Shown: positions 6,180-35,920, counted from the first letter of the stretch. The stretch is 64,000 nucleotides of DNA from Gammaproteobacteria bacterium (GCA_030066085.1 JASJCI010000031.1:39626-103625); one strand, 5' to 3'. A program made the numbers and translations. Notes: generated by a model not told the origin, from the sequence alone.

Positions 6180-6719
6180 TTGCAACAGTTCGACGGCACG
6201 ACGATTCTCTCCGTGCGCCGCGGCAACCGTGTCGTCATCGGTGGTGACGGCCAGGTCAGCCTCGGCAACACGATCATGAAGGGCAATGCGCGCAAGGTAC
6301 GCAGGCTCTACAAGGACCGGGTCATTGCCGGTTTTGCCGGCGGCACGGCCGACGCGTTCCTGCTGTTCGAACTGTTCGAGGGCAAGCTCGAACAGCATAA
6401 CGGCCAGATGACCCGTGCCGCGGTCGAGCTGGCAAAGGAGTGGCGCTCGGATCGTGCGCTGCGCCGCCTCGAGGCCCTGCTGTGCGTGGCCGATGCCACG
6501 GCGTCGTTGATCATCTCCGGTAACGGCGACGTGATCGAACCCGAGGACAGCCTGATGGCGGTGGGTTCGGGCGGCGCCTACGCGCAGGCCGCGGCCCGCG
6601 CGATGCTGGATACCACCGAACTCGACGCGCGCGAGATCGTCGAACGTGGCCTGCAAATCGCCGGCAGCATCTGCGTTTACACCAACCAGAACCACACTTT
6701 CGAAGAAATTAGCTACTAG
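6180..6719 (+). CDS. hslV: ATP-dependent protease subunit HslV
   Basis: strong identity to HslV ([10 protein letters not shown]...GGTADAF...SGNGDV...GSGG); only in-frame start close to the catalytic Thr is the TTG at 6180. Confidence 0.85.
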
Positions 6720-6748
6720 TGGACAGCAAGTTGATCAACCAGTCGCCG

Positions 6749-8068
6749 ATGACCCCGCGTGAGATTACGCAGGAACTCGACAATCACATCATTGGCCAGG
6801 ACGACGCCAAGCGCTCGGTCGCGATTGCGCTGCGCAATCGCTGGCGTCGCCAGCAGGTCGCCGAAGAGCTGCGCAACGAAATCACGCCCAAGAATATCCT
6901 GATGATGGGACCGACCGGCGTCGGTAAAACCGAGATCGCCCGCCGGCTCGCACGCCTCGCCAACGCGCCGTTCATCAAGGTCGAGGCTACCAAGTTCACC
7001 GAGGTCGGTTACGTCGGCCGCGATGTCGAATCGATCATTCGCGACCTGGTGGACGTATCGGTCAAGCAAATGCGTGAAGCGGAGGTTGCGCGCGTGCGCC
7101 ATCGCGCCGAGGACGCCGCCGAGGAAAAGGTGCTCGACGCGCTGTTACCGCGGCCCAACGAATTCGCCGCGGAAGCCGACAGCGGCCAGGGCGAGGGTAC
7201 GCGGCAGAAATTCCGCAAGATGCTGCGCGAGGGCAAACTCGACGACCGTGAAATCGAGGTCGACCTGCAGATGCCCAACGTCGGCGTCGAGATCATGGCG
7301 CCGCCGGGCATGGAAGAGATGACCAACCAGCTGCAGGGGCTTTTTCAGAACTTCGGCGGTGGCAAGAGCCGCACCCGCAAGCTGCGCGTCGAGGACGCGC
7401 TCAAAATGCTGACCGACGAAGAAGCCGCCAAGCTGATCAACGAGGAAGAACTCAAGCTCACCGCGCTGGAAAACGCCGAGCAGAACGGCATCGTTTTCAT
7501 CGACGAAATCGACAAGGTCGCGCGGCGCCAGGAAACCAGCGGTGCCGACGTGTCGCGTGAAGGCGTGCAGCGCGATCTGCTGCCGCTGGTCGAGGGCTGC
7601 ACCGTGTCGACCAAGGCCGGCATGATCAAGACCGACCACATCCTGTTCATCGCCTCGGGCGCGTTCCACGTGTCCAAGCCCTCCGACCTGATCCCGGAAC
7701 TGCAGGGCCGCCTGCCGATCCGGGTCGAGCTGTCGGCGCTGACCGTTGAAGATTTCGTGCGCATCCTGCGTGAACCCAACGCTTCGCTGACCGAACAGTA
7801 CACCGCGCTGATGGAAACCGAGGGCGTCAGCCTCGAGTTCACCGACGACGGACTCGCGCGCATTGCGCAGGTGGCCTTCCAGGTCAACGAGAAACAGGAA
7901 AACATCGGCGCGCGCCGGCTGCATACCGTCATGGAGCGGTTGCTCGAAAAAGTCAGCTTCGAGGCCACCGACATGGTCGAGGAAAGCGTGACGATCGACG
8001 CCGCTTACGTCAACGAACATCTCGGCGAACTGTCGCTGGACGAAGACCTGTCGCAATACATACTCTGA
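6749..8068 (+). CDS. hslU: ATP-dependent protease ATPase subunit HslU
   Basis: MTPREI...[21 protein letters not shown], Walker A GPTGVGKT; ATG 6749 preferred over GTG 6719 by alignment to E. coli HslU. Confidence 0.9.
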
Positions 8069-9352: not shown

Positions 9353-10009
9353 ATGATCACCGCGGAGCGCTCCGGTGCCAGCCTGTTCGATTCGTTGCAA
9401 GACGGCATGCTGACCCTGGCCGAAATCAGCGCCAACCGGCTGCTCGGCTACGACGCCGAGGCGCTGGCCGGCTGCCAGGCGCTGCAGGGCCGCGTCATCG
9501 CGCTCGAAATTACCGACCTCGAGTTCGAGACCTACTGTCATCCAGGCGGCTGGGGCATCAGGCTGTCGCGCAATCCGCCGGCGCGCGCTGCGGACGCGCG
9601 CATTTCAGGTCGGCTCGCGGCACTGGTCGAGCTGGTGACCAGCGACGACCAGGCCGCAACCTCGATGCGCGAGCGCGTGCGCTTCGACGGCGATGTCGCG
9701 GTGGCGCAGAAACTGCAGCGGATAATGGCCGCGCTCGATATCGACTGGGAAGAAATTCTCGCCGACTACACCGGCGACCGGGTCGCGTTTCAACTGCACC
9801 GGAGCCTGCGCCGCCTCGGCGACCGGGTACGAAAAAATCTCGATTCGGTCCTGATGACCAGTAGCGAGTACCTGCGCGAGGAGGCGCGCCTGTCACCGAC
9901 CCAGACCGAATTCGACCAGTTCTCGGCCGGCGTGACCCGCACCAAGCACGACGTCGCCCGCAGCGAGGCGCGCCTGCAGGCGCTGCTCGATCGCCTCGAC
10001 GACGCCTGA
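9353..10009 (+). CDS. ubiJ: ubiquinone biosynthesis accessory factor UbiJ (SCP2 domain)
   Basis: 218 aa between ubiE and ubiB, the conserved ubiE-ubiJ-ubiB arrangement; SCP2-like N-terminal region. Confidence 0.7.
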   Translation: MITAERSGASLFDSLQDGMLTLAEISANRLLGYDAEALAGCQALQGRVIALEITDLEFETYCHPGGWGIRLSRNPPARAADARISGRLAALVELVTSDDQAATSMRERVRFDGDVAVAQKLQRIMAALDIDWEEILADYTGDRVAFQLHRSLRRLGDRVRKNLDSVLMTSSEYLREEARLSPTQTEFDQFSAGVTRTKHDVARSEARLQALLDRLDDA

Positions 10010-10014
10010 ACACA

Positions 10015-11682
10015 ATGCGCAACCTGTTTCGGCTGATCGCAATCAACTTCACCGCGGCGCGTTTCGGGCTCGACGAGATCGTGCTGTCGATTCACTTTTT
10101 CCGCCCGCTGTACCTGCTCGGCCTGGTGAATCCGTTCAACTGGTTTCGCGACCGCAGCCAGTCGCAGGCGGTGCGTCTGCGGCTGTGTATCGAGGCGCTG
10201 GGACCGATATTCATCAAGTTCGGCCAGGCGTTGTCTACCCGGCGCGACCTGTTCGGCGACGAGATCACGGATGAACTGGAGAAACTGCTCGACCAGGTAC
10301 CGCCGTTCAGCTGGGCGGAGGCGCACGCGATTCTCGAAAGCCAGCTCGGCGCGCCGCTGGATAGCATATTCGAGAGCTTCGACCGCCAGGAAATCGCGTC
10401 GGCATCGATTGCGCAGGTTTACGCGGCCCGGCTGATCGGCGGCGAAGAGGTCGTGGTCAAGATCGTACGCCCGGGAATCGAGCGTCGGATTCGCAAGGAC
10501 ATCGGACTGTTGATGCAGCTGGCTCGCCTTGCCGAGCGTTACTGGGACGAGGCGCCGCGAGTCAAGCCACTGCAGGTCGTGCGCGAGTTCGAAAGCACCA
10601 CCCTGAACGAACTCGACCTCGTGCGCGAGGCCGCTAACGCAAGCGAATTGCGCCGCAACTTCGAGGATTCAGCCGACCTGTACGTGCCGCGTGTCTACTT
10701 CGACTACTGCAAACCCCGCGTGATGGTCATGGAGCGAATCCGCGGTATTCCGGTAACCGACATCGAGTCGCTCAGGGCGGCCAATATCGACCTCGAGGTG
10801 CTTGCGCGCAAGGGCGTGGAAATTTTCTTCACCCAGGTTTTTCGCAACAATTATTTCCATGCCGACATGCATCCCGGCAACATCTTCGTCGACCCGGGCA
10901 ATCCCGCGGATCCGCAATATATCGCGGTCGATTTCGGCATCATGGGATCGCTGTCGACCAGCGATCAGCGTTATCTCGCGGAAAATTTCGCCGCCTTTTT
11001 CAACCGTGACTACCGCCGCGTGGCCGAGCTGCACGTCGATTCCGGCTGGGTCGACGCGGATACGCGCATCGACGAATTCGAGGCCGCGGTGCGCAGCGTT
11101 TGCGAACCGATGTTTCAGCGTCCGCTGGCGGAGATATCCTTCGGCCAGCTCCTGTTGCGCCTGTTCCAGACCGCGCGCAAGTTCAACATGGAAATCCAGC
11201 CGCAACTGCTCCTGCTGGAAAAAACCTTCCTCCACATCGAGGGCATCGGGCGCCAGCTTTACCCGCAGCTCGACCTGTGGACCACGGCCAAGCCTTTCAT
11301 CGAGCGCTGGCTGTCGGAGCAGCTGGGCGCGCGCGCGCTGGTAGAGGGATTCAAAAAGAACCTGCCGTACCTCGCCGAGCATCTGCCGGATCTGCCGCAG
11401 CTTGCGGTCCGGGCCATCACCAACATCGCGAAGGGTGAGCTGCACGTCGCCTTGCGACCCCGGCAGGTCGACGAATTACGCCGCGAAATCCGCCGCGCCA
11501 ACCGGCGTAACGTGCGCGCCATCATCGGCTCGGGTTTCGTCGTAAGCGCCAGTATCGTGCTCGGCCTCGACGGGCTGGCACCGGTCATGGTCGGCGATGG
11601 CCGCTGGCTGGTGCCGCTGTTCAGCGCGGTGCTGTTCATCCCCGGCTTTTACCTGCTGGCCAGCAGTTATCTCGACGACTGA
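10015..11682 (+). CDS. ubiB: ubiquinone biosynthesis regulatory kinase-like protein UbiB
   Basis: 555 aa ABC1/ADCK atypical kinase motifs (ASIAQVY, HADMHPGNIFV, DFGIMG), C-terminal TM helices. Confidence 0.9.
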   Translation: MRNLFRLIAINFTAARFGLDEIVLSIHFFRPLYLLGLVNPFNWFRDRSQSQAVRLRLCIEALGPIFIKFGQALSTRRDLFGDEITDELEKLLDQVPPFSWAEAHAILESQLGAPLDSIFESFDRQEIASASIAQVYAARLIGGEEVVVKIVRPGIERRIRKDIGLLMQLARLAERYWDEAPRVKPLQVVREFESTTLNELDLVREAANASELRRNFEDSADLYVPRVYFDYCKPRVMVMERIRGIPVTDIESLRAANIDLEVLARKGVEIFFTQVFRNNYFHADMHPGNIFVDPGNPADPQYIAVDFGIMGSLSTSDQRYLAENFAAFFNRDYRRVAELHVDSGWVDADTRIDEFEAAVRSVCEPMFQRPLAEISFGQLLLRLFQTARKFNMEIQPQLLLLEKTFLHIEGIGRQLYPQLDLWTTAKPFIERWLSEQLGARALVEGFKKNLPYLAEHLPDLPQLAVRAITNIAKGELHVALRPRQVDELRREIRRANRRNVRAIIGSGFVVSASIVLGLDGLAPVMVGDGRWLVPLFSAVLFIPGFYLLASSYLDD

Positions 11683-12825: not shown

Positions 12826-14142
12826 ATGAGTAACAACACCCACCGCATCGGCTTCGTCAGTCTCGGCTGCCCCAAGGCCACGGTCGACTCGGAACAGGTA
12901 ATCACCCAGCTGCGCGCCGAGGGTTACGATATCGTGCCCGACTACGATGCCGACATGATCATCATCAACACCTGCGGATTTATCGACGCCGCGGTGGAAG
13001 AGTCCCTCGACAGTATCGACGAGGCCATGCGCGAGAACGGCCGCGTCGTCGTTACCGGCTGCCTCGGAACCCGTGCCGACATGATTCGCGAGCGTTTCCC
13101 CGAACTGCTGGCGGTAACCGGGCCGCACGCACGCGACGAAGTCATGAGCGCGGTACATCGACACCTGCCGGCGCCGCACGACCCCTTCGTCGACCTGGTG
13201 CCGCCGCAGGGCGTGCGCCTGACGCCGCGGCATTACGCCTATCTCAAGATCTCCGAGGGCTGCAATCATCGCTGCAGCTTCTGCATCATACCGTCACTTC
13301 GCGGTGACCTGGTGAGCCGGCCGATCGACGAAGTCATGCAGGAAGCGCAGACCCTGGTCGATGCCGGCACCCGGGAAATCCTGGTGATATCGCAGGATAC
13401 GAGCGCCTACGGCGTCGATCTGCGCTATCCGACCCGCTTCTGGCGCGGCCAGCCACTCAGGACTCGCTTCGTCGACCTCGCACGCGCGCTCGGTCAGCTC
13501 GGCGCCTGGGTGCGGTTACACTACGTCTATCCCTATCCCCACGTAGACGACGTCATTCCATTGATGGCCGACGGCGCTATCCTGCCGTATCTCGATATCC
13601 CGTTTCAGCATGCGAGCCCGCGCATTCTCAAGTTGATGAAGCGACCCGGCAATCGCGAACGGGTGCTCGAGCGTATCGCGGCCTGGCGCGAAATCTGCCC
13701 GCAACTCGCCATTCGCAGCACCTTCATCGTCGGCTTTCCTGGCGAAACCGAGCAGGATTTCGAAATGCTGCTCGACTTTCTCGAGCAGGCGCAGCTCGAT
13801 CGCGTCGGCTGTTTTGCCTATTCCGCGGTCGACGGCGCCGCCGCCAACGCGCTGCCGGACGCGGTTCCCGAGGCGGTCAAACAGGAACGTTTCGACCGTT
13901 TCATGCGCACCCAGCAAGCCATCAGCACGGCGCGCCTTGCCAGGCGAGTTGGCCAGCGATTGCAGGTGCTGGTGGAGGCGGGTGACGAATCGGGATACGT
14001 CGCCCGGTCTTATGCCGATGCCCCCGAGATCGACGGCCTGGTGCACGTCGCAGCCACCCGGGCACTTGCCATCGGCGACTTCTGCGAGGTAGAAATCACC
14101 GGCGCCGACGAATACGACCTCTACGGCTCGCCGACGAGGTAA
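12826..14142 (+). CDS. rimO: ribosomal protein S12 methylthiotransferase RimO
   Basis: MTTase N-domain, radical [11 protein letters not shown] motif, TRAM C-terminus; ATG at 12826 preferred over the longer ORF. Confidence 0.9.
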
Positions 14143-14465
14143 ACGAGGTCGCCGTCGAGGCCAATCGCCAGCGGCTCCAGGCTGGTTCCCGGGCAAGGCC
14201 CGAAGACACATTCCCCGGTATCGATCAGGAAGCGCGCATCGTGCGTGGCGCACTGGATCAAGGCCCCGTCCAGGTCGAGAAACTGGTGCTCGACCCAGTC
14301 CAGCGGAGAGCCGGTATGCGGGCAGCTGTTGCGGTAGGCGAACAGCTCGCCATCACGCTGCACTACGAAACCGTCGACGCGCCGGCCCCGATGTTGCACC
14401 GAGAATCCGCGCGACCCGGGGTCGGATAATTCCCCGAGGCGGCAAATCTGCGTTGTTGCGCCCAT
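14121..14465 (-). CDS. Rieske [2Fe-2S] domain protein
   Basis: 114 aa; CPH...CATH ligand boxes ([10 protein letters not shown] / [10 protein letters not shown]). Confidence 0.7.
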
Positions 14466-25945: not shown

Positions 25946-28042
25946 ATGTCGCACGATCCCGGCTCCATTCCACTGCTCTCGCTCGACGCGATCGCGTTCG
26001 ATTCGGAAACCACCGGCCTCGATACGTCCAAGGCGCGCATGATCCAGCTCGGCGCGGTGCGCATCGTGCACGGCGAGGTAGTGGTGGACGCCAATTTCCA
26101 GGAATTGATCAACCCCGGCGTGCCGATCCCGGCGGAAAGCCAGGCGATTCACGGCATCAGCGACAGCGATGTCGCCGATGCGCGCGGCTTCGCCGACGTC
26201 GCCGCCGAATTCGACGCCTGGCGCGGTAATTCCGTGCTGATCGGCTATGCCAGCGGTTTCGACCTGGCGATGCTCAAGCGCGAGCGCGACCTCGCCGGCC
26301 TCGAGTGGCAGGCGCCGCGCTGCCTCGACGTGCGTTTCCTGGTCAACCTGCTGGCGCCCAACCTGCCCGATTTTTCGCTCGACACCATCGCCAGCTGGTC
26401 CGGGGTCGACATCAAGGGCCGCCACAGCGCGCTCGGCGACGCGATCGCTACCGCCGAGATTTTCGTCGCGCTGATCCCGCGCCTGCGCGAGGCCGGCATC
26501 CGCACGCTGGCCGAGGTCGAACGCGCCTGCGACCGTTTCAGCGAATCCAGCATGCGCGAGACCCAGATCGGCTGGCACGACCTCAACGAGGCGCGCCGTT
26601 CGCGCACGGTCATGGCGCGTATCGACAGTTTTCCCTACCGCCACCGCCTGCGGGACCTGATGAACAGTCCGCCAATCCTGGTGCCCGGATCCATGTCGCT
26701 GCGCGAAGCGCTGGCGGAGATGATCGATCACGAGGTCAGCTCGCTGTACGTCAAGCCGCTCGAGCAAGGCGGTGATACCGGCATCCTGACCGAGCGCGAT
26801 ATCCTGCGGCGGTTCCGCCAGGATGGCGAGGAAGCGTTTGCGCTGCGCGTGCGCGAGGTCGCGGTTTTTCCGCTCGCGAGCCTGCCGGCGGAGGCCTTCG
26901 TCTACCGCGCCATCGCGCGCATGAAACGCATGCACGTGCGCCATCTCGGCGTACACGATTATCGCGGCCGCATCATCGGCGCGCTGTCGGCACGCGATCT
27001 CTTGCGCCAGCGCGCCGACGACGCGATCCAGCTCGGCGACGACATCATGGCCGCCAAGACCGCGGGGCAGATGGCCGCGGTGTGGGGCAAGATTACCCTG
27101 GTCGCGAAAAGCCTGGTGGCCGAGGACGTCGACGCGCGCGATATCGCCGCGGTGATCTCGCGCGAGCTTTGCGCGCTGACCCGCCAGGCCTGCGTAATTG
27201 CCGAGCACATGATGCCGAGCCCGCCGCCGCGCAAGTACGCGCTGCTGGTACTCGGTTCCGGCGGCCGCGGCGAGAGCCTGCTGGCAATGGACCAGGACAA
27301 CGCCGTGGTCTATGCCGATGCCGAGGAAGACGACGCTGCCGACGAGTGGTTCGAAGCTTTCGGCAAACACGTCGCGGACATACTCGACGAGGCCGGCGTT
27401 CCCTACTGCAAGGGCGGCATCATGGCCAGCAACGCGGAGTGGCGCATGTCGCTCAAAGCCTGGAAAAAAACGGTCAAGCAATGGATCAAGCGCAAGTCGC
27501 CGGAAGACATTCTCAACTGCGATATCTTTTTCGACGCGGTACCGGTGCACGGCGACTTCAAACTCGCCAACAAGCTGCTCGACAGGGCGTTCGAAATCGG
27601 CGGCAGCTCCGGCCTGTTCATCAAGCTGATGTCGATCAACGCCTGCAAGAACGGGCCACCGCTCGGCCTGTTCGGCCGCTTCAAACTCGACAACGGCCGC
27701 ATGGATTTGAAGATGGGCGGCATCATGCCGCTGTTTTCGACCGCGCGTACGCTGGCCATTACCCATGGTATTCGCGCACAGTCGACCCCGGAGCGCCTCG
27801 CCGCCGTCGGCCGCGAGCTCGGCAAGATGGAGACCACGCTGGAGAACCTGGGCGAGGCCCACCGGATCATATTCCACGCCATCCTGGAACAGCAGCTGCT
27901 CGATCTGGAAGCCGGCATACCGCTGTCGAACCGGGTCGCGCCGAACAGCCTCAACTCGGCCATGCGCGACCAGCTGAGCTGGGCGCTGGAACAGGTGCCG
28001 AACGTGTCCAACCTGCTGGGTGACCCGCTCTCGCGCGGCTGA
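25946..28042 (+). CDS. DnaQ-like DEDDh 3'-5' exonuclease :: tandem CBS :: DUF294 nucleotidyltransferase-type fusion protein
   Basis: 699 aa from ATG 25946; N-terminus FDSETTGLD...HGISDSD...HSALGDA (PolIII epsilon-like exo motifs I-III); middle CBS pair; C-terminal half matches DUF294/DUF294_C (LGSGGRGE...DQDNAVVY). Confidence 0.8.
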   Translation: MSHDPGSIPLLSLDAIAFDSETTGLDTSKARMIQLGAVRIVHGEVVVDANFQELINPGVPIPAESQAIHGISDSDVADARGFADVAAEFDAWRGNSVLIGYASGFDLAMLKRERDLAGLEWQAPRCLDVRFLVNLLAPNLPDFSLDTIASWSGVDIKGRHSALGDAIATAEIFVALIPRLREAGIRTLAEVERACDRFSESSMRETQIGWHDLNEARRSRTVMARIDSFPYRHRLRDLMNSPPILVPGSMSLREALAEMIDHEVSSLYVKPLEQGGDTGILTERDILRRFRQDGEEAFALRVREVAVFPLASLPAEAFVYRAIARMKRMHVRHLGVHDYRGRIIGALSARDLLRQRADDAIQLGDDIMAAKTAGQMAAVWGKITLVAKSLVAEDVDARDIAAVISRELCALTRQACVIAEHMMPSPPPRKYALLVLGSGGRGESLLAMDQDNAVVYADAEEDDAADEWFEAFGKHVADILDEAGVPYCKGGIMASNAEWRMSLKAWKKTVKQWIKRKSPEDILNCDIFFDAVPVHGDFKLANKLLDRAFEIGGSSGLFIKLMSINACKNGPPLGLFGRFKLDNGRMDLKMGGIMPLFSTARTLAITHGIRAQSTPERLAAVGRELGKMETTLENLGEAHRIIFHAILEQQLLDLEAGIPLSNRVAPNSLNSAMRDQLSWALEQVPNVSNLLGDPLSRG

Positions 28043-28281
28043 AAGCTCGAAGACAGTTTTCTGTCGGTAATTCACCGGGCTCGCCGCCAGGTTGCCAGCC
28101 GAACGCACGAGGGACCAAAACAGGTTCTGTGCCCGAAGCGGTCTCCGGGAACACTCACACCAGGGGCGTTCGCCTGAAAGCGGGCCCCAGTCCCGGACCT
28201 GGCACTCAGAATCGCGCCCCCGGCCGGGCATTAACGCCGAGATTGACAATCATTAGACCGGGGCGTCAAATCGACGGCACT

Positions 28282-29292
28282 ATGAACGAACAGGCAACAC
28301 CAGCACCGGCGGCACTATTAGACGTGGGCAGGTTTGATCCGAAGTGCGCCGAATCGTCCTGGACACTTCCGTCAACGTGGTATTTCGATGAACAAATCTA
28401 CGCCCTTGAACAAAGCCGCATATTCAGCAAGACGTGGTGTTACCAGTGCCATAAGGGGGATGTAGCCAGTCCGGGCGATCGTTGTTACGGCAATGTGGCA
28501 GGTCAACCCATTGTCATCTGGCATGAGCAAGACCATGGCCTGCATGCCATAAATCTTACCAATCAGCGAGCCATATCTATCGAAACTTATGCTGGTTTCG
28601 TGTTTGTGAACCTGGATCCCGCTGCGTTGCCGCTAAGGCAACAGGCCGGAAAGTTCATCGATGACATGTATCGCTGCTGTCCACGATTGGACGAGCTGGT
28701 TCGCGTGCAGCGTATCGAGCGTGAAGTCGGCGCCAACTGGAAAACCCTGATCGATAACAACCACGAGTGCTATCACTGCGCCTTCAATCACAAGTCGTTG
28801 ATGCAGCTTGTCGACTACGAAAGCCAGGCGGTCTGGAGTGATGACGGCATTACCTTTAGTCACGAGGTCAAGCGCAAACAACTCGACAATCCAGCTTATG
28901 CGCTAAATCCCGACGAACTCAGGCAGGACTCACTATTTGGCTTCATTTGGCCAACACTGATCCCGCTGTGGTTCCCGGGCTCCCCAAGCGCGGTCTTGTT
29001 TCAGGTGATACCGAATGGCCCTGAAAGCAGTATCGCACGGCATGATTTTTATTTTCTCGATACAGGGATGAGCAGCCAGGAACAGGATTTTGTTGATTAT
29101 ATAGACAAGGTACTGGTACCCGAGGACGTGACTTTGTGCGAATCGGTGCAGAGAGGACTGCGGTCGCGTGGTTACCGACAGGGCAAGCTGATTGTCGATC
29201 GCTCACGACCTGATTTCTCCGAGCACCACGTGCATTTTTTTCAGCAGTTTGTCTATCAGGCGTTACTCGAAGCCAAAGCAGCAGTTCCATAG
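28282..29292 (+). CDS. aromatic-ring-hydroxylating oxygenase alpha-subunit homolog with degenerate (ligand-less) Rieske domain
   Basis: 336 aa; N-terminal Rieske-fold region aligns to RHO alpha subunits but all four ligands are replaced (CxH box read as LTNQRA, CxxH box read as ETYAGF); catalytic-domain mononuclear Fe motif retained (NWKTLIDNNHECYHCAFNH); lower GC than flanks. Confidence 0.6.
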   Translation: MNEQATPAPAALLDVGRFDPKCAESSWTLPSTWYFDEQIYALEQSRIFSKTWCYQCHKGDVASPGDRCYGNVAGQPIVIWHEQDHGLHAINLTNQRAISIETYAGFVFVNLDPAALPLRQQAGKFIDDMYRCCPRLDELVRVQRIEREVGANWKTLIDNNHECYHCAFNHKSLMQLVDYESQAVWSDDGITFSHEVKRKQLDNPAYALNPDELRQDSLFGFIWPTLIPLWFPGSPSAVLFQVIPNGPESSIARHDFYFLDTGMSSQEQDFVDYIDKVLVPEDVTLCESVQRGLRSRGYRQGKLIVDRSRPDFSEHHVHFFQQFVYQALLEAKAAVP

Positions 29293-29517
29293 CGGGCAAC
29301 CGGCAAATCCCTTCTTTATTCATGGAATCATGTGACAGCAGGCAATACCGCCGTTGACAGTGGCCAAATTGTGTCTGTTTGCTTGCCAGGTATCTGGCGA
29401 GATCCAAAGACTTTAGAGGCCATCTTTTTCCTCAACATCACTCCTCCAACGGGCGTATGATTAACTGGACCGGCTGTATCCGCCGGCACGTGAATTTCAG
29501 GGGCCGAGGACAGCGGA

Positions 29518-30330
29518 ATGGGCAACATTTCTGATCCACCGGGGGGTAGCTACGCCTTCAGCCAAAATCCTGACCGTGCGCGTGAGCTGGACCGCCTGCG
29601 CCACCAGGCGCTGGCCGCGTGGCCGATGGAGGAGGCCTGGCTAAAGAATCGGGGCCTGGCGGACGGGATGCATGTGCTCGATATCGGCTGCGGGCCGGGG
29701 TTCGTCAGCGAGAAGCTCGCACGGCTGAATCCTGCCGGGGTGACCGTCGGTCTCGAGCCGGATCCCGAACTTGCGCACCTCGCTGGCAAGCGCTTCGACG
29801 CTATCCCGGGACTGTCGCTGCACCAGGGCAGCCTGGCACATAACCATCTCCAGGAGAGTTATTTCGATCTCGCTTATGCGCGGTTCGTAGCGCAACACTT
29901 CGGGTCTCCGCAGGCTGAAATGGCACATATTTTTCGACTCCTCAAGCCCGCTGGTCAGGTTGTGCTGGCGGACGTGGACGACGGCCTGACCCTGGTGTAT
30001 CCCGAGCTGCCGGAGCTACTCGAGGTCATGCGGCTTTCGGACAAACTCCAGGCCGAGGCGGGCGGGGATCGCCGGGTTGGACGAAAGTTACCCGCATTAC
30101 TTACCGCGGCAGGCTTCACCGATGTCGGCTTCGACATTTTGCCTTTCACGAGTCGCCAGCTCGGCCGTCACGCCCTGTTCGACCTGGCATGGTCATTTCG
30201 TCTGCACCGGATCGAACAACTTACCGGCGCCGACAACAAGCGCCTGGTCGAAAAAGTGAAGGACTTCTTCAGCAGCCAGGACTGGTATGGCGTCACCTGC
30301 GTGATAGCCGCATATGGTGTCAAACAGTGA
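29518..30330 (+). CDS. class I SAM-dependent methyltransferase
   Basis: 270 aa; motif I VLDIGCGPGFVSEKLA, motif post-I/II present; lower-GC island. Confidence 0.8.
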   Translation: MGNISDPPGGSYAFSQNPDRARELDRLRHQALAAWPMEEAWLKNRGLADGMHVLDIGCGPGFVSEKLARLNPAGVTVGLEPDPELAHLAGKRFDAIPGLSLHQGSLAHNHLQESYFDLAYARFVAQHFGSPQAEMAHIFRLLKPAGQVVLADVDDGLTLVYPELPELLEVMRLSDKLQAEAGGDRRVGRKLPALLTAAGFTDVGFDILPFTSRQLGRHALFDLAWSFRLHRIEQLTGADNKRLVEKVKDFFSSQDWYGVTCVIAAYGVKQ

Positions 30331-31484
30331 CTGCGGTGGCGCCCGATGCACCGGAGCCGGTATCACTCGCCCGCACGTCGACGCAGCGCGAGGCGGTGTA
30401 TCGACTTAGATACGACGTGTACATGCGCGAGCTCAGAAAGGGGTTCCTGGGCGATGTGGATCACGAGCACTGCAGGGTTCGGGATGCGGAGGACGAACAA
30501 CAGGACGTCAGCATCTTCTACACCGGGACCGAAGAGGACATGACCGGCTCGCTGCGGCTGCAGGTCTGGGATCCTGGCCGGATTCCGGACGACATCGTGC
30601 AACGTTTCTCACTGCACCTGTTCCCCGGTATCGAGGCGTACAAGGTGAGCGAGGCGGCACGACTGGTTGTAAGACCGGGCATGCGCGGCGGGCGTCTGCT
30701 GGACTCGCTCGCCCTCGCCGCGTGCGAGCATGCAGTGGTCAACCACGGTGTCTTCGTCTGTTTCCTGTACTGTTCGCCAGGTCTTGTGCGTACCTTTATG
30801 CGTCTCGGCTTTCAGCCTTACCCGGGCTACGTGATACCGAACGAGGACGGGATTCGGCTACCCATGTTCGTAGTGTTAACCGACCTCGAGCATCTCGATG
30901 CTGTCGGCTCACCGCTGGCACCGCTCATGGCACGCCACCTTTCCGCCGACACCGCGCCTCCTGTCAGGTCTGTTTTCCTGCAGGCAATGAGCGATCAGCC
31001 ATACCACTACGAAACCCGTGCGGCGCGGGTCTGGCAGGAAGTGCGAGACCAGCTTCAACCTGGTCCCGGGAACCGCTCTCCCTTGCTGGAGGGGATCTCG
31101 GCCAGCGATACCGAGGTGCTTTGCCACTGCGGCTTTATCATGGAGATCCCCGCCGACAAGGTGGTCATAAGAGAGGGCCTGGTGGAACGGGAGCTCTACC
31201 TGGTTTTACGCGGCGAATACGAAGTTCGCATAGGAAACAGGGTGCTCGGGGTGCTGGGCGTGGGTGACGTGCTGGGAGAGATGTCGTTTTTCGATAATCC
31301 GGGCGAACGTGTGGTCACGGTCCGCTCGTTGACAGCCGGACGCGTCATGGTACTGGAGCGCCATTTCCTCGAACACCTGGCTCCCTCCCATCCGAGACTG
31401 GCGTCTCGCCTGCTAATGAACCTTGGGCGCATCCTCTCGCGACACCTGGCCATCGCGCTGCGGACCTGCCCGGGCGTAGACTAG
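30327..31484 (+). CDS. LuxI/FeeM-type N-acyl amino acid synthase domain fused to a C-terminal cyclic-nucleotide-binding (CAP-type) domain
   Basis: GTG start overlaps the MTase stop (GTGA). N-terminal half matches Acetyltransf_5/autoinducer-synthase-like NAS signature (AVYRLRYDVYMRELRKGF...DEQQDVSIFY...SEAARLVV...RLGF). C-terminal about 120 aa is a cNMP-binding beta-barrel (LYLVLRGEYEV...GVGDVLGEMSFFDNPGERVVTVRSLTAGRVMVL). Confidence 0.65.
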   Translation: MTAVAPDAPEPVSLARTSTQREAVYRLRYDVYMRELRKGFLGDVDHEHCRVRDAEDEQQDVSIFYTGTEEDMTGSLRLQVWDPGRIPDDIVQRFSLHLFPGIEAYKVSEAARLVVRPGMRGGRLLDSLALAACEHAVVNHGVFVCFLYCSPGLVRTFMRLGFQPYPGYVIPNEDGIRLPMFVVLTDLEHLDAVGSPLAPLMARHLSADTAPPVRSVFLQAMSDQPYHYETRAARVWQEVRDQLQPGPGNRSPLLEGISASDTEVLCHCGFIMEIPADKVVIREGLVERELYLVLRGEYEVRIGNRVLGVLGVGDVLGEMSFFDNPGERVVTVRSLTAGRVMVLERHFLEHLAPSHPRLASRLLMNLGRILSRHLAIALRTCPGVD

Positions 31485-32356
31485 GGCCTGTTCGGTCTCA
31501 GCATCTCGAGCAGAGATCCGACGTCATTTGTTGCCAACCCGAGATCTACCGCCCTGCCGAAGAGTTGCCGGGCAAACGCGGACACATCGGTGCGGTATCC
31601 AGTTTCCTGCTGGAACTCGATCATCAGGTCCGCAATCTGGACCCATACCCCGATCGGCGCATCCGATGAATCGAGGCCACCGTTTTCGATTTTGCGGAGA
31701 CTCCCCATCAGCGCTTGCGCGTCATAGGCGGTATTTGTCGGCAAGTCTCGCACCAGCTCCTGCAACGATATGCCCGCTGCCTCACAGAGTGCTGCGCCAT
31801 TCATGATGCCGATGGTCATACCGAGCGATCCAGATAAGGCCGCCAGGTTCAGAGCAGACGATTTTGCGGGATCGGATCCCAGGTACCTGGCCTGCGGTGT
31901 ATATTCCTTGAGCAACGGTTCAGCCGCATCGTAGGCGGCTTTATCGCCGGCCAGCAGCAAGGGAAATTCATCACCACCTATCTGGTTTGGATAGGCCACT
32001 ATCTCACCATCCAGGTAGGCGGCACCGGCCCGTTTTGCCCAGTCACTGGCTGATCGGGACAGCGTGGGTGAACCACTGGAAAGCTGGATCAGTATCCGCC
32101 CCTTTAGCGCAGCCATGCACTCCGGGGTAGCCAGTAACGACGCCGTTGTTGCGTAATCACTTACGCAAACAACGACCATGGGGCTCGCGGATATTGCTTC
32201 GGCCGGCGTTGCTGCAACGGTGACATTGCCGACAGCGAGCGGCAGCGCCTTGTCGCTGGTGCGGTTCCAGACAACGATTTCGCGACCGAATTTCGCCGCG
32301 GTATCAGCCAGGGCAAACCCCATGGCACCCAACCCGATGAAAGAAACTTGCGCCAT
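31481..32356 (-). CDS. NAD(P)-dependent beta-hydroxyacid dehydrogenase family (HIBADH/6PGDH-NAD-binding) oxidoreductase
   Basis: 291 aa; MAQVSFIGLGAMGFALA dinucleotide-binding motif; convergent 4-nt overlap with the preceding gene. Confidence 0.8.
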   Translation of the reverse strand: MAQVSFIGLGAMGFALADTAAKFGREIVVWNRTSDKALPLAVGNVTVAATPAEAISASPMVVVCVSDYATTASLLATPECMAALKGRILIQLSSGSPTLSRSASDWAKRAGAAYLDGEIVAYPNQIGGDEFPLLLAGDKAAYDAAEPLLKEYTPQARYLGSDPAKSSALNLAALSGSLGMTIGIMNGAALCEAAGISLQELVRDLPTNTAYDAQALMGSLRKIENGGLDSSDAPIGVWVQIADLMIEFQQETGYRTDVSAFARQLFGRAVDLGLATNDVGSLLEMLRPNRP

Positions 32357-35041: not shown

Positions 35042-35920
35042 TTATCTCGACTTGCCGAGAACGACGTAGTTGCCGAGCAGCACGAGCAGAAAACCAAACC
35101 CGGCGCGCGGGGTCCACTGGTAATCCTCGAACAGGGTCGACAATCCCAGCGCAATCACCGGAAACAGGACCGCGGCGTAAGCCGCGCGGTCGGCGCCGAT
35201 ACGCCCGACCAGCGTCAGGTACGAGCCAAAGGCGAGGATCGATCCGAACAGGGCGAGGTAGAGCAGCGATACGGTGTATGCCGGCGCCGGATCAAAATTG
35301 AACGGTACCCCGCTGAACAGCGCGTACACGAACATGATCGCGGCGCCATAACTCATTCCCCAGGCGTTGGTCTGGATCACCGGCATGCCGGCGCGCTGGT
35401 TGCGCGCGGAGATGATGTTGCCGACCGACGCGAGCCAGGTGGCGCCGAGACACATCCACAGGCCCCGCCAGGTGTCGGCGCTGGCATCCACCGCGCTGAC
35501 TTCCGACCAGAAAACCGTTGCAATACCGCCGATCCCGATCGCCGCGCCGATAACGACACGGGCACTGACCCGGCTGCCGAGGAACAGCGCGCCGTTGACG
35601 ATATTGAGCAGGATCACGGTAGAAAACAACAGCGCGATGATGCCCGAGGTCAACAACCCGGTCGCCCAGTAGAACACGAGGTAATTGGTGGAAAACAGGA
35701 ACAGTCCCAGCAGCGCCATGTAGCCGTGTTGCACCCGGGAATACTTCAACGGGCGCCCGGTCAGCAGGCAAAACAGCAGCAGGATTACCGCCGCCAGCGC
35801 AAAGCGGTAAACCAGCGATACCTCCTCGGCGACGATACCGAGCTGGAACCTGATCGCGAACCAGGTGGAGCCCCAGATCAGCACCGCGGCCAGGTAGAGA
35901 CTGACCGAGTGGGTGTACAA
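35042..35920 (-). CDS. DMT-superfamily (EamA/RarD-like) transporter
   Basis: 10-TM duplicated EamA pattern; probable TTG start near 35920 just downstream of the kinase gene stop; the long track ORF is an over-extension. Confidence 0.7.
   Translation of the reverse strand: MYTHSVSLYLAAVLIWGSTWFAIRFQLGIVAEEVSLVYRFALAAVILLLFCLLTGRPLKYSRVQHGYMALLGLFLFSTNYLVFYWATGLLTSGIIALLFSTVILLNIVNGALFLGSRVSARVVIGAAIGIGGIATVFWSEVSAVDASADTWRGLWMCLGATWLASVGNIISARNQRAGMPVIQTNAWGMSYGAAIMFVYALFSGVPFNFDPAPAYTVSLLYLALFGSILAFGSYLTLVGRIGADRAAYAAVLFPVIALGLSTLFEDYQWTPRAGFGFLLVLLGNYVVLGKSR

Follow-up and report, generated by a model that had tools for sequence, protein, structure and literature searches.

Can an oxygenase of the Rieske superfamily remain a working enzyme once the module that gives the superfamily its name has been removed? 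The Rieske cluster defines these enzymes, and the relay of electrons from the cluster of one subunit, through a Glu or Asp, to the catalytic iron of the next is the textbook mechanism. The question is raised by a gene at 28282-29292 of a 64,000-nucleotide stretch of a Gammaproteobacteria bacterium genome (GCA_030066085.1, JASJCI010000031.1:39626-103625), hereafter the window, which encodes a homologue of the alpha subunits of ring-hydroxylating oxygenases in which no [2Fe-2S] ligand is present. We find that it is one of a set of group-V Rieske oxygenases in which the cluster has been lost repeatedly, which are kept by selection and which at present go unnoticed under names such as 'carnitine/choline monooxygenase subunit' or 'SRPBCC family protein'. 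The features of the gene and its product are as follows (residues are those of the window protein; CntA is the oxygenase subunit of carnitine monooxygenase, group Va):

28282-29292, + strand: complete coding sequence of a Rieske-cluster-less group-V oxygenase homologue, 336 amino acids plus stop (open reading frame (ORF) list, PF00848 match, CntA match)
28282-28551, + strand: residues 1-90, N-terminal helices and retained basal strands of the former Rieske domain; residues 24-90 correspond to native CntA 16-82
28552-28572, + strand: residues 91-97 (NLTNQRA), the scar or linker that replaces the approximately 50-residue [2Fe-2S]-binding subdomain with its CxH and CxxH boxes (alignments)
28687-29262, + strand: residues 136-327, catalytic mononuclear-iron domain of SRPBCC fold (PF00848, E 5.5e-27)
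28735-28791, + strand: motif NWKTLIDNNHECYHCAFNH, with N160, the bridging E162, Cys163/Cys166, and the iron ligands H165 and H170 (CntA alignment)
29122-29127, + strand: E281-D282, D282 being the carboxylate of the 2-His-1-carboxylate triad (CntA alignment)

The frame is intact over 336 residues, from the ATG at 28282 that opens the ORF to the stop at 29290-29292. A longer start at GTG 28129 is possible on paper; every homologue, however, starts at a position equivalent to MNE..., which makes 28282 the real start. Ring_hydroxyl_A (PF00848) matches residues 136-327 at 95.5 bits against a cut-off of 24.9, whereas the NCBIfam equivalog for GbcA (NF058607) scores 64.4 bits against a cut-off of 670. 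One database protein (P0001, NCBI/Logan) is identical to the window protein, and the NCBI name within the same 90%-identity cluster is 'SRPBCC family protein [Gammaproteobacteria bacterium]'. There is no CxH...CxxH pair anywhere in the 336 residues, and no other frame or start restores one: across 28100-29300, the two remaining + frames are interrupted by 16 and 18 stops and contain no CxH. Thus, the central claim of an earlier reading of this DNA, made from the sequence alone, is borne out: the gene encodes an alpha-subunit homologue lacking every [2Fe-2S] ligand, as seen in the PF00848 match, the CntA alignment and a gap of approximately 50 residues over both ligand boxes, and no such cluster can form. 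The alternative frame or start that the same reading had named as a way out is not found.

How the ligands were lost is a different matter. The closest solved structure in a PDB sequence search is CntA (6y8j, E 2.5e-45), and the alignment comes in two pieces, with residues 24-90 matching residues 36-102 of the 6y8j chain and residues 97-326 matching chain residues 160-388. Chain numbering is that of native CntA plus 20, as checked by counting to E205 in the alignment. Residue 90 corresponds to native CntA 82 (chain 102) and residue 97 to native CntA 140 (chain 160); six residues occupy the place of 57, and native CntA 83-139, with both ligand boxes, is gone. In the alignments with CntA and with relatives of approximately 380 amino acids, some 50 residues (NVCSHRAHPLL...CPYHQWCY...) are absent from the window protein: these relatives read ...RAFYNVCSHRAHPLL-(20)-CPYHQWCY-(25)-NADLKPVxVExYGGFLFVNLDP and the window protein ...HAIN-LTNQRAISIETYAGFVFVNLDP. 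The segment over residues 88-98 is 11 residues long here, compared with 61-62 in full-length relatives. The Rieske model PF00355 matches with its first half only (profile positions 2-40 of 88; E 0.085, below cut-off). As judged from these alignments, ligand loss is the in-frame excision of a module of approximately 50 residues and not a set of point substitutions. The sequence-only reading had instead aligned the N-terminal 120 residues position by position with the Rieske domain, taking LTNQRA for the CxH box and ETYAGF for the CxxH box. Only residues 24-90 align before the gap; the counterpart of LTNQRA is 'NADLKP' and that of ETYAGF is 'ENYGGF'. Both lie past the cluster-binding region, and these box assignments are therefore wrong.

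The iron site, by contrast with the excised module, is intact. E162-C163-Y164-H165-C166 and H170 align with CntA E205-C206-Y207-H208-C209 and H213, so that the two His ligands of the facial triad recognized earlier (H165 and H170, aligned to CntA H208 and H213) are confirmed. The downstream catalytic Asp, for which a search had been suggested, is D282 in 'PEDVTLCESVQRGL', which aligns with CntA D323 in 'PEDLNLVESVQRGL' and is invariant in all alignments. H165, H170, D282, E162, C163 and C166 are invariant in 61 aligned sequences, 30 of which are Rieske-less. In CntA, cluster and iron lie 44 Å apart within one subunit, and electrons reach the iron from the cluster of the adjacent subunit, over 12.2 Å and by way of E205; E205 mutants are all inactive with unchanged structure, and the residue acts as the relay between Rieske cluster and iron (PMC7948474). 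The Cys pair that flanks the first His ligand in group V (CntA C206/C209) has been proposed to keep the iron ferrous (PMC10952381). With C163/C166 invariant and with CntA and then Stc2 as top fold matches, the window protein is a member of group V. Within that group, N160 sits at the position of CntA Y203, where an aromatic Tyr or Phe makes a cation-pi contact with trimethylammonium in group Va, including CntA (PMC7948474); Asn is the group Vb (Stc2-type) state. Recognition of carnitine or trimethylammonium in the manner of group Va is, from this residue, not expected.

Structure prediction, another check proposed at the outset, gave a confident CntA-like fold. An AlphaFold2 monomer model built with the family alignment has a mean pLDDT (predicted local distance difference test) of 88.6 and a pTM (predicted template modelling score) of 0.88. 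The N-terminal remnant is predicted as confidently as the rest (blocks of 91-97), as a small beta structure with strands at residues 53-57, 67-72, 75-82 and 86-91. Foldseek places the model on CntA (6y9c) with a TM score of 0.83 normalized to the query, with Stc2 (4quq, 3vca) next-best. By catalytic domain, motifs and fold the protein is a member of the Rieske-oxygenase superfamily that lacks the defining Rieske ligands.

The excision is not confined to the window. A protein search returned 1047 relatives, and among the matches listed, 30 of the 117 of at least 300 amino acids lack the segment; what corresponds to residues 88-98 is 9-13, 15, 25 or 26 residues long in these and 61-62 in the others. 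In a tree built from 314 columns outside the deleted region (neighbour-joining, as were all trees; P0001 was left out as identical to the window protein), the 30 Rieske-less sequences split into five groups: the window's clade, with 21 members (22 with P0001) and sister to the full-length P0022; a second group of five (P0084, P0109, P0086, P0094 and P0095); the pair P0027/P0035; and P0031 and P0074, each alone. The window's clade is monophyletic in 98 of 100 bootstrap replicates, and at least five separate Rieske-less groups are present in 99 of 100. Independent collections add L007, L076 and L098, which join the P0027 group, and further patterns of loss in L084, L122/L125 and L062. Finally, a profile search of 1.8 billion representatives found six Rieske-less proteins with 29-32% identity to the window protein (P0145, P0155, P0160, P0167, P0218 and P0189), all of which retain NWK, E162, H165, H170 and E281-D282. 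On these comparisons, loss of the module has happened many times in group-V-like oxygenases. All compared sequences derive from metagenomes or metagenome-assembled genomes (MAGs), the window's source among the latter, and a missing segment could in that setting be suspected of being an assembly or sequencing artefact. The same in-frame gap recurs in dozens of sequences from independent projects and collections, and this explanation carries practically no weight.

Several relatives are visibly damaged. A Rieske-less copy in L062 (9944-10956) is frameshifted and still lies beside a DAO gene typical of full-length loci; the L046 copy (1952-2949) is frameshifted, that of L123 (346-879) is truncated after about 178 residues, and in L066 a full-length copy (6279-6899 and 10001-10534) is interrupted by about 3 kb of inserted DNA. 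These breaks may be either sequencing errors or real decay. Some Rieske-less copies elsewhere are perhaps not alive; the window's copy shows no defect. In an alphaproteobacterial MAG, an IS5-like transposase gene (DUF772 and DDE_Tnp_1; L007 11422-12777, + strand) lies directly downstream of an independent Rieske-less copy.

Is the cluster-less protein maintained by selection, and if so, for catalysis? In a codon comparison of the window's clade, the ratio of nonsynonymous to synonymous divergence (dN/dS) is 0.094 and 0.116 against the closest relatives, L067 and L068 (about 85% amino-acid identity, dS about 0.7), and 0.125 against L006, within an overall range of 0.09-0.16 in which dS is saturated for the deeper pairs. 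By part, dN/dS is 0.07-0.11 in the catalytic domain and 0.17-0.31 in the N-terminal remnant. Set against 87 full-length relatives, the clade has no fixed change within the catalytic domain and only V107 against L elsewhere, and constraint is lost only at residues 74, 75 and 90-96, next to the scar; of these, 90, 92, 93, 95 and 96 are conserved in full-length relatives and free to vary in the Rieske-less clade. The low dN/dS together with the conservation of alignment columns indicates that the gene is maintained by selection, with an active site constrained as in cluster-bearing relatives. The leftover Rieske strands are, by the same ratios, relaxed and still under purifying selection, not neutral.

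These results bear on the proposal that the protein is a non-catalytic derivative, that is, a pseudoenzyme that uses the SRPBCC pocket as a ligand-binding protein or sensor, or as a structural or regulatory subunit. The relaxed constraint on the remnant would fit such a role, as would a window without pathway context and the NCBI name of a near-identical protein, 'SRPBCC family protein' and nothing further. Yet none of the independent Rieske-less lineages departs from the three metal ligands, the bridging Glu or the Cys pair, and the catalytic domain, at a dN/dS of 0.07-0.11, is constrained as strictly as one would expect of an enzyme. We consider a non-catalytic role unlikely. The sequence-only reading had offered two explanations, electrons from a separate Rieske protein or ferredoxin and repurposing as a non-redox binding or cyclase-type scaffold. 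The invariant Glu, metal ligands and Cys pair, the purifying selection, and the precedent of NdmC and NdmD described below favour the former and disfavour the latter.

We therefore return to the source of electrons. Rieske oxygenases assemble head to tail as alpha3 (or alpha3beta3), the cluster of one subunit feeding the iron of the next, and each turnover of such a monooxygenase requires two electrons from outside. Our tentative reading, to which we assign a probability of roughly 0.45, is that the window protein works as a mononuclear-iron oxygenase and receives its electrons in trans, as NdmC does from NdmD. It would keep binding Fe(II) and activating O2, and its substrate would be small, polar and similar to betaine; a donor would occupy the place that the deletion left free, and electrons would pass through the retained Glu162. 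Such a donor could be a separate ferredoxin, of Rieske type or not, or a reductase; if mixed trimers form head to tail, it could also be the Rieske domain that a different alpha subunit contributes. The strongest argument for supply in trans is conservation of the Glu: as it is kept in every independent Rieske-less lineage, and is needed in CntA for electron transfer and not for folding, the relay may still be in use. A precedent exists in NdmC, which has no Rieske cluster and uses an extra Rieske cluster on its reductase, NdmD (PMC4408171).

Three observations weigh against this reading. In the window, in the loci examined of the window's clade and in three other Rieske-less lineages, the Rieske-less gene has no gene for a donor linked to it, and no reductase, ferredoxin or glutathione S-transferase (GST)-like gene lies beside Rieske-less copies at the loci examined. 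No second gene of the subfamily was found, using two peptide patterns, in three species-representative MAGs with a Rieske-less copy, these MAGs being incomplete, which argues against mixed trimers with a close paralogue. Lastly, the only CxH..CxxH motif in the 64-kb window belongs to a ferredoxin that is 14 kb away, beside rimO, and not derived from the Rieske domain of the family:

14121-14465, - strand: stand-alone Rieske-type ferredoxin of 114 amino acids (CPH...CATH; PF00355), next to rimO and most similar to the ferredoxins BphF/TodB, which belong to three-component dioxygenases

No cognate oxygenase is encoded near this ferredoxin. It is conceivable as a donor in trans, and nothing links it to the cluster-less oxygenase. 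We also considered whether it might be the missing module, split off as a separate protein, and rejected the idea: it is BphF/TodB-like and has only the generic CxH motif in common with the Rieske domain of the family.

The same absence of partners could be taken to mean that none is required. On this account the protein is a self-sufficient mononuclear-iron enzyme without a protein donor, either a peroxygenase that uses H2O2, the peroxide shunt having become its physiological route, or an oxidase or dioxygenase that takes its electrons from the substrate. In every Rieske-less lineage examined, the gene stands alone between housekeeping genes unrelated to it, and no redox partner is close by; the module is lost recurrently and apparently easily, which suggests that some role can be filled without the cluster; the Cys pair, which is retained, has been proposed to hold the iron ferrous; and CntA itself is capable of a peroxide shunt with H2O2. 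However, peroxide shunts of Rieske oxygenases are generally slow or limited to a single turnover, no adaptive change sets the catalytic pocket apart from that of cluster-bearing relatives, and the invariance in all lineages of the bridging Glu, known for inter-domain electron transfer, is left unexplained. We regard self-sufficiency, the main rival of supply in trans, as doubtful, if well worth weighing. Equally doubtful is its extension to the whole group, namely that group-V oxygenases gave rise repeatedly, at least 5-10 times, to stand-alone Rieske-less enzymes that need no iron-sulfur relay and are run by H2O2 or substrate electrons. If this were true, these enzymes would form an overlooked class, cofactor-independent oxygenases or peroxygenases whose genes are mobile and have spread singly among uncultured Proteobacteria of marine and soil habitats.

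How the gene came to stand where it does can be read in part from its surroundings. The window is ordinary gammaproteobacterial chromosome, with mreBC, rnd, gatAB, rimO and ABC transport genes. The gene and its immediate neighbours are arranged as follows:

25961-28042, + strand: protein with an RNase_T-type exonuclease, two CBS domains and a DUF294 nucleotidyltransferase with substrate-binding domain, immediately upstream
28225-28281, + strand: conserved upstream region, a putative promoter/operator containing ATTGACAAT, near-identical in the window, L067 and L068
29518-30330: class-I S-adenosylmethionine (SAM) methyltransferase, the downstream neighbour
30327-31484, + strand: FeeM-like N-acyl amino acid synthase domain followed by a cyclic-nucleotide-binding domain, an unusual fusion

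Beyond the FeeM-like fusion, on the opposite strand, lies a RedAm-like NAD(P) dehydrogenase gene. The GC content of the oxygenase gene is 0.52 (0.58 at third codon positions, GC3), compared with 0.62-0.67 in the flanks and a GC3 mostly of 0.64-0.86 in the neighbouring genes. DNA similarity to the two closest relatives is limited to the coding sequence and 60-110 nucleotides upstream (28169/28225 to 29301), and the flanks are unrelated. Over the last approximately 57 nucleotides ahead of the ATG, the window, L067 and L068 hardly differ, despite a dS of about 0.7 in the coding sequence, and ATTGACAAT is an ATTG/CAAT inverted repeat that overlaps a TTGACA; 28225-28281 may be an operator or promoter that moves with the gene. 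To judge by composition and the limits of similarity, gene and control region have evidently moved as a unit and were acquired horizontally. No repeat, terminator, tRNA or Rfam element was found at the gene borders beyond chance. An independent metagenome contig, L128, matches 29125-31890 at 99.96% identity, and the 3' junction with the downstream methyltransferase gene is thus not an assembly accident. Elsewhere in the window, an ORF of 159 amino acids (35292-35771, - strand) has the lowest GC3 (0.48) and no Pfam match; this compositional outlier may be either foreign or not a real gene.

An orphan gene of foreign composition, with visibly broken relatives (L046, L062, L123 and L066), might be a decaying remnant in this genome. 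Against a pseudogene stand the intact ORF and a dN/dS of 0.09-0.12, not near 1, on the branches to the window's copy. The upstream region is conserved, and gene and methyltransferase junction recur in L128. Decay of the window's copy is accordingly very improbable.

The neighbourhoods of relatives were compared for traces of function. Deeper members of the window's clade (54-75% identity) share a gammaproteobacterial block of TfoX_N, LemA, DUF2207, (RlmG), FA_hydroxylase, the Rieske-less gene, a histidine ammonia-lyase (HAL)-like gene and OCD/mu-crystallin. The FA_hydroxylase gene lies on the opposite strand and shares the promoter region with the Rieske-less gene, and the HAL-like gene is convergent. 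The loci are:

Block loci: L001 6670-9098; L005 1244-5612; L006 2272-6547; L046 1063-5442; L069 4996-9377; L070 3088-7054; L075; L123
HAL-like genes, all - strand: L005 3130-4611; L006 4170-5651; L046 2962-4443; L069 6886-8379; L070 4989-6467

The block may be a functional unit or only conserved synteny. Its FA_hydroxylase, HAL-like, OCD-like and RlmG neighbours have no tblastn match within the 64-kb window, and NCBIfam scores of the clade's neighbours are all far below cut-off. The FA_hydroxylase-family neighbour is a membrane di-iron protein, weakly OlsE-like. The HAL-like (Lyase_aromatic) neighbours score far under the HutH cut-off and do not have the Ala-Ser-Gly triad for the 4-methylideneimidazole-5-one (MIO) cofactor, the expected site reading GHGMA[AS]D; by this site, they are MIO-less members of the ammonia-lyase family.

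In the other Rieske-less lineages the gene is solitary and its surroundings are unrelated: it lies between tadA and guaA in the P0084 contigs (guaA is also found in L072), and adjoins an aminotransferase gene in L073 and a pilin gene in L074. Full-length relatives often have neighbours typical of N-methyl amine catabolism: among their loci, about 50 in number, 19 include a DMGDH-type gene (DAO+FAO_M+GCV_T), and DAO/FAD oxidoreductases and an M24 peptidase also occur. Together with the Vb-type Asn160, these neighbours weakly suggest that the substrate could be a small zwitterionic N-methylated compound.

Compared with known systems, CntA is the best match in both sequence and fold, with the E-C-Y-H-C-x3-H motif, the Asp ligand in 'PED..ESVQRGL', the N-terminal helices and the first Rieske strands in common. 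The window protein differs from it in lacking CntA 83-139 and with it the cluster and four ligands, in having Asn160 for Tyr203, and in that no cntB-like reductase gene adjoins its own. Likeness to group Vb (Stc2, GbcA) lies in the Asn at the CntA Y203 position, in Stc2 as the next-best fold and in full-length relatives that stand beside genes of N-methyl amine catabolism, whereas the window protein has no Rieske cluster, falls so far short of the GbcA cut-off that it is not GbcA, and has no such neighbours.

The nearest functional parallel is NdmC of the NdmCDE caffeine N7-demethylase of Pseudomonas putida CBB5, likewise a Rieske-family non-heme iron oxygenase without a [2Fe-2S] cluster of its own. 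It shows that a cluster-less oxygenase can be active with a cluster in trans (PMC4408171). In contrast to NdmC, the window protein has lost only the cluster-binding subdomain and kept the basal strands; neither the window nor the related loci examined hold an NdmD-like gene (with an extra Rieske domain) or an NdmE-like (GST-like) gene; and the two proteins belong to different Rieske-oxygenase groups, as judged by the absence of any Ndm structure among the PDB sequence matches. Phrase searches of the literature yielded papers on the bc1 complex and a review that covers NdmC, and no description of Rieske-less oxygenase homologues other than NdmC, which is not proof of their absence from the literature, and a 2025 review of Rieske oxygenases makes no mention of them.

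The family thus offers a natural set of proteins under purifying selection from which the defining module has been excised and in which the surroundings of the iron are intact. If a donor in trans docks where the cluster was, the single precedent of NdmC and NdmD would be generalized. Whether it is such a donor that serves these enzymes or the catalytic domain that works alone, either outcome would bear on how Rieske oxygenases are wired, on the engineering of minimal oxygenases and on the annotation of the family.

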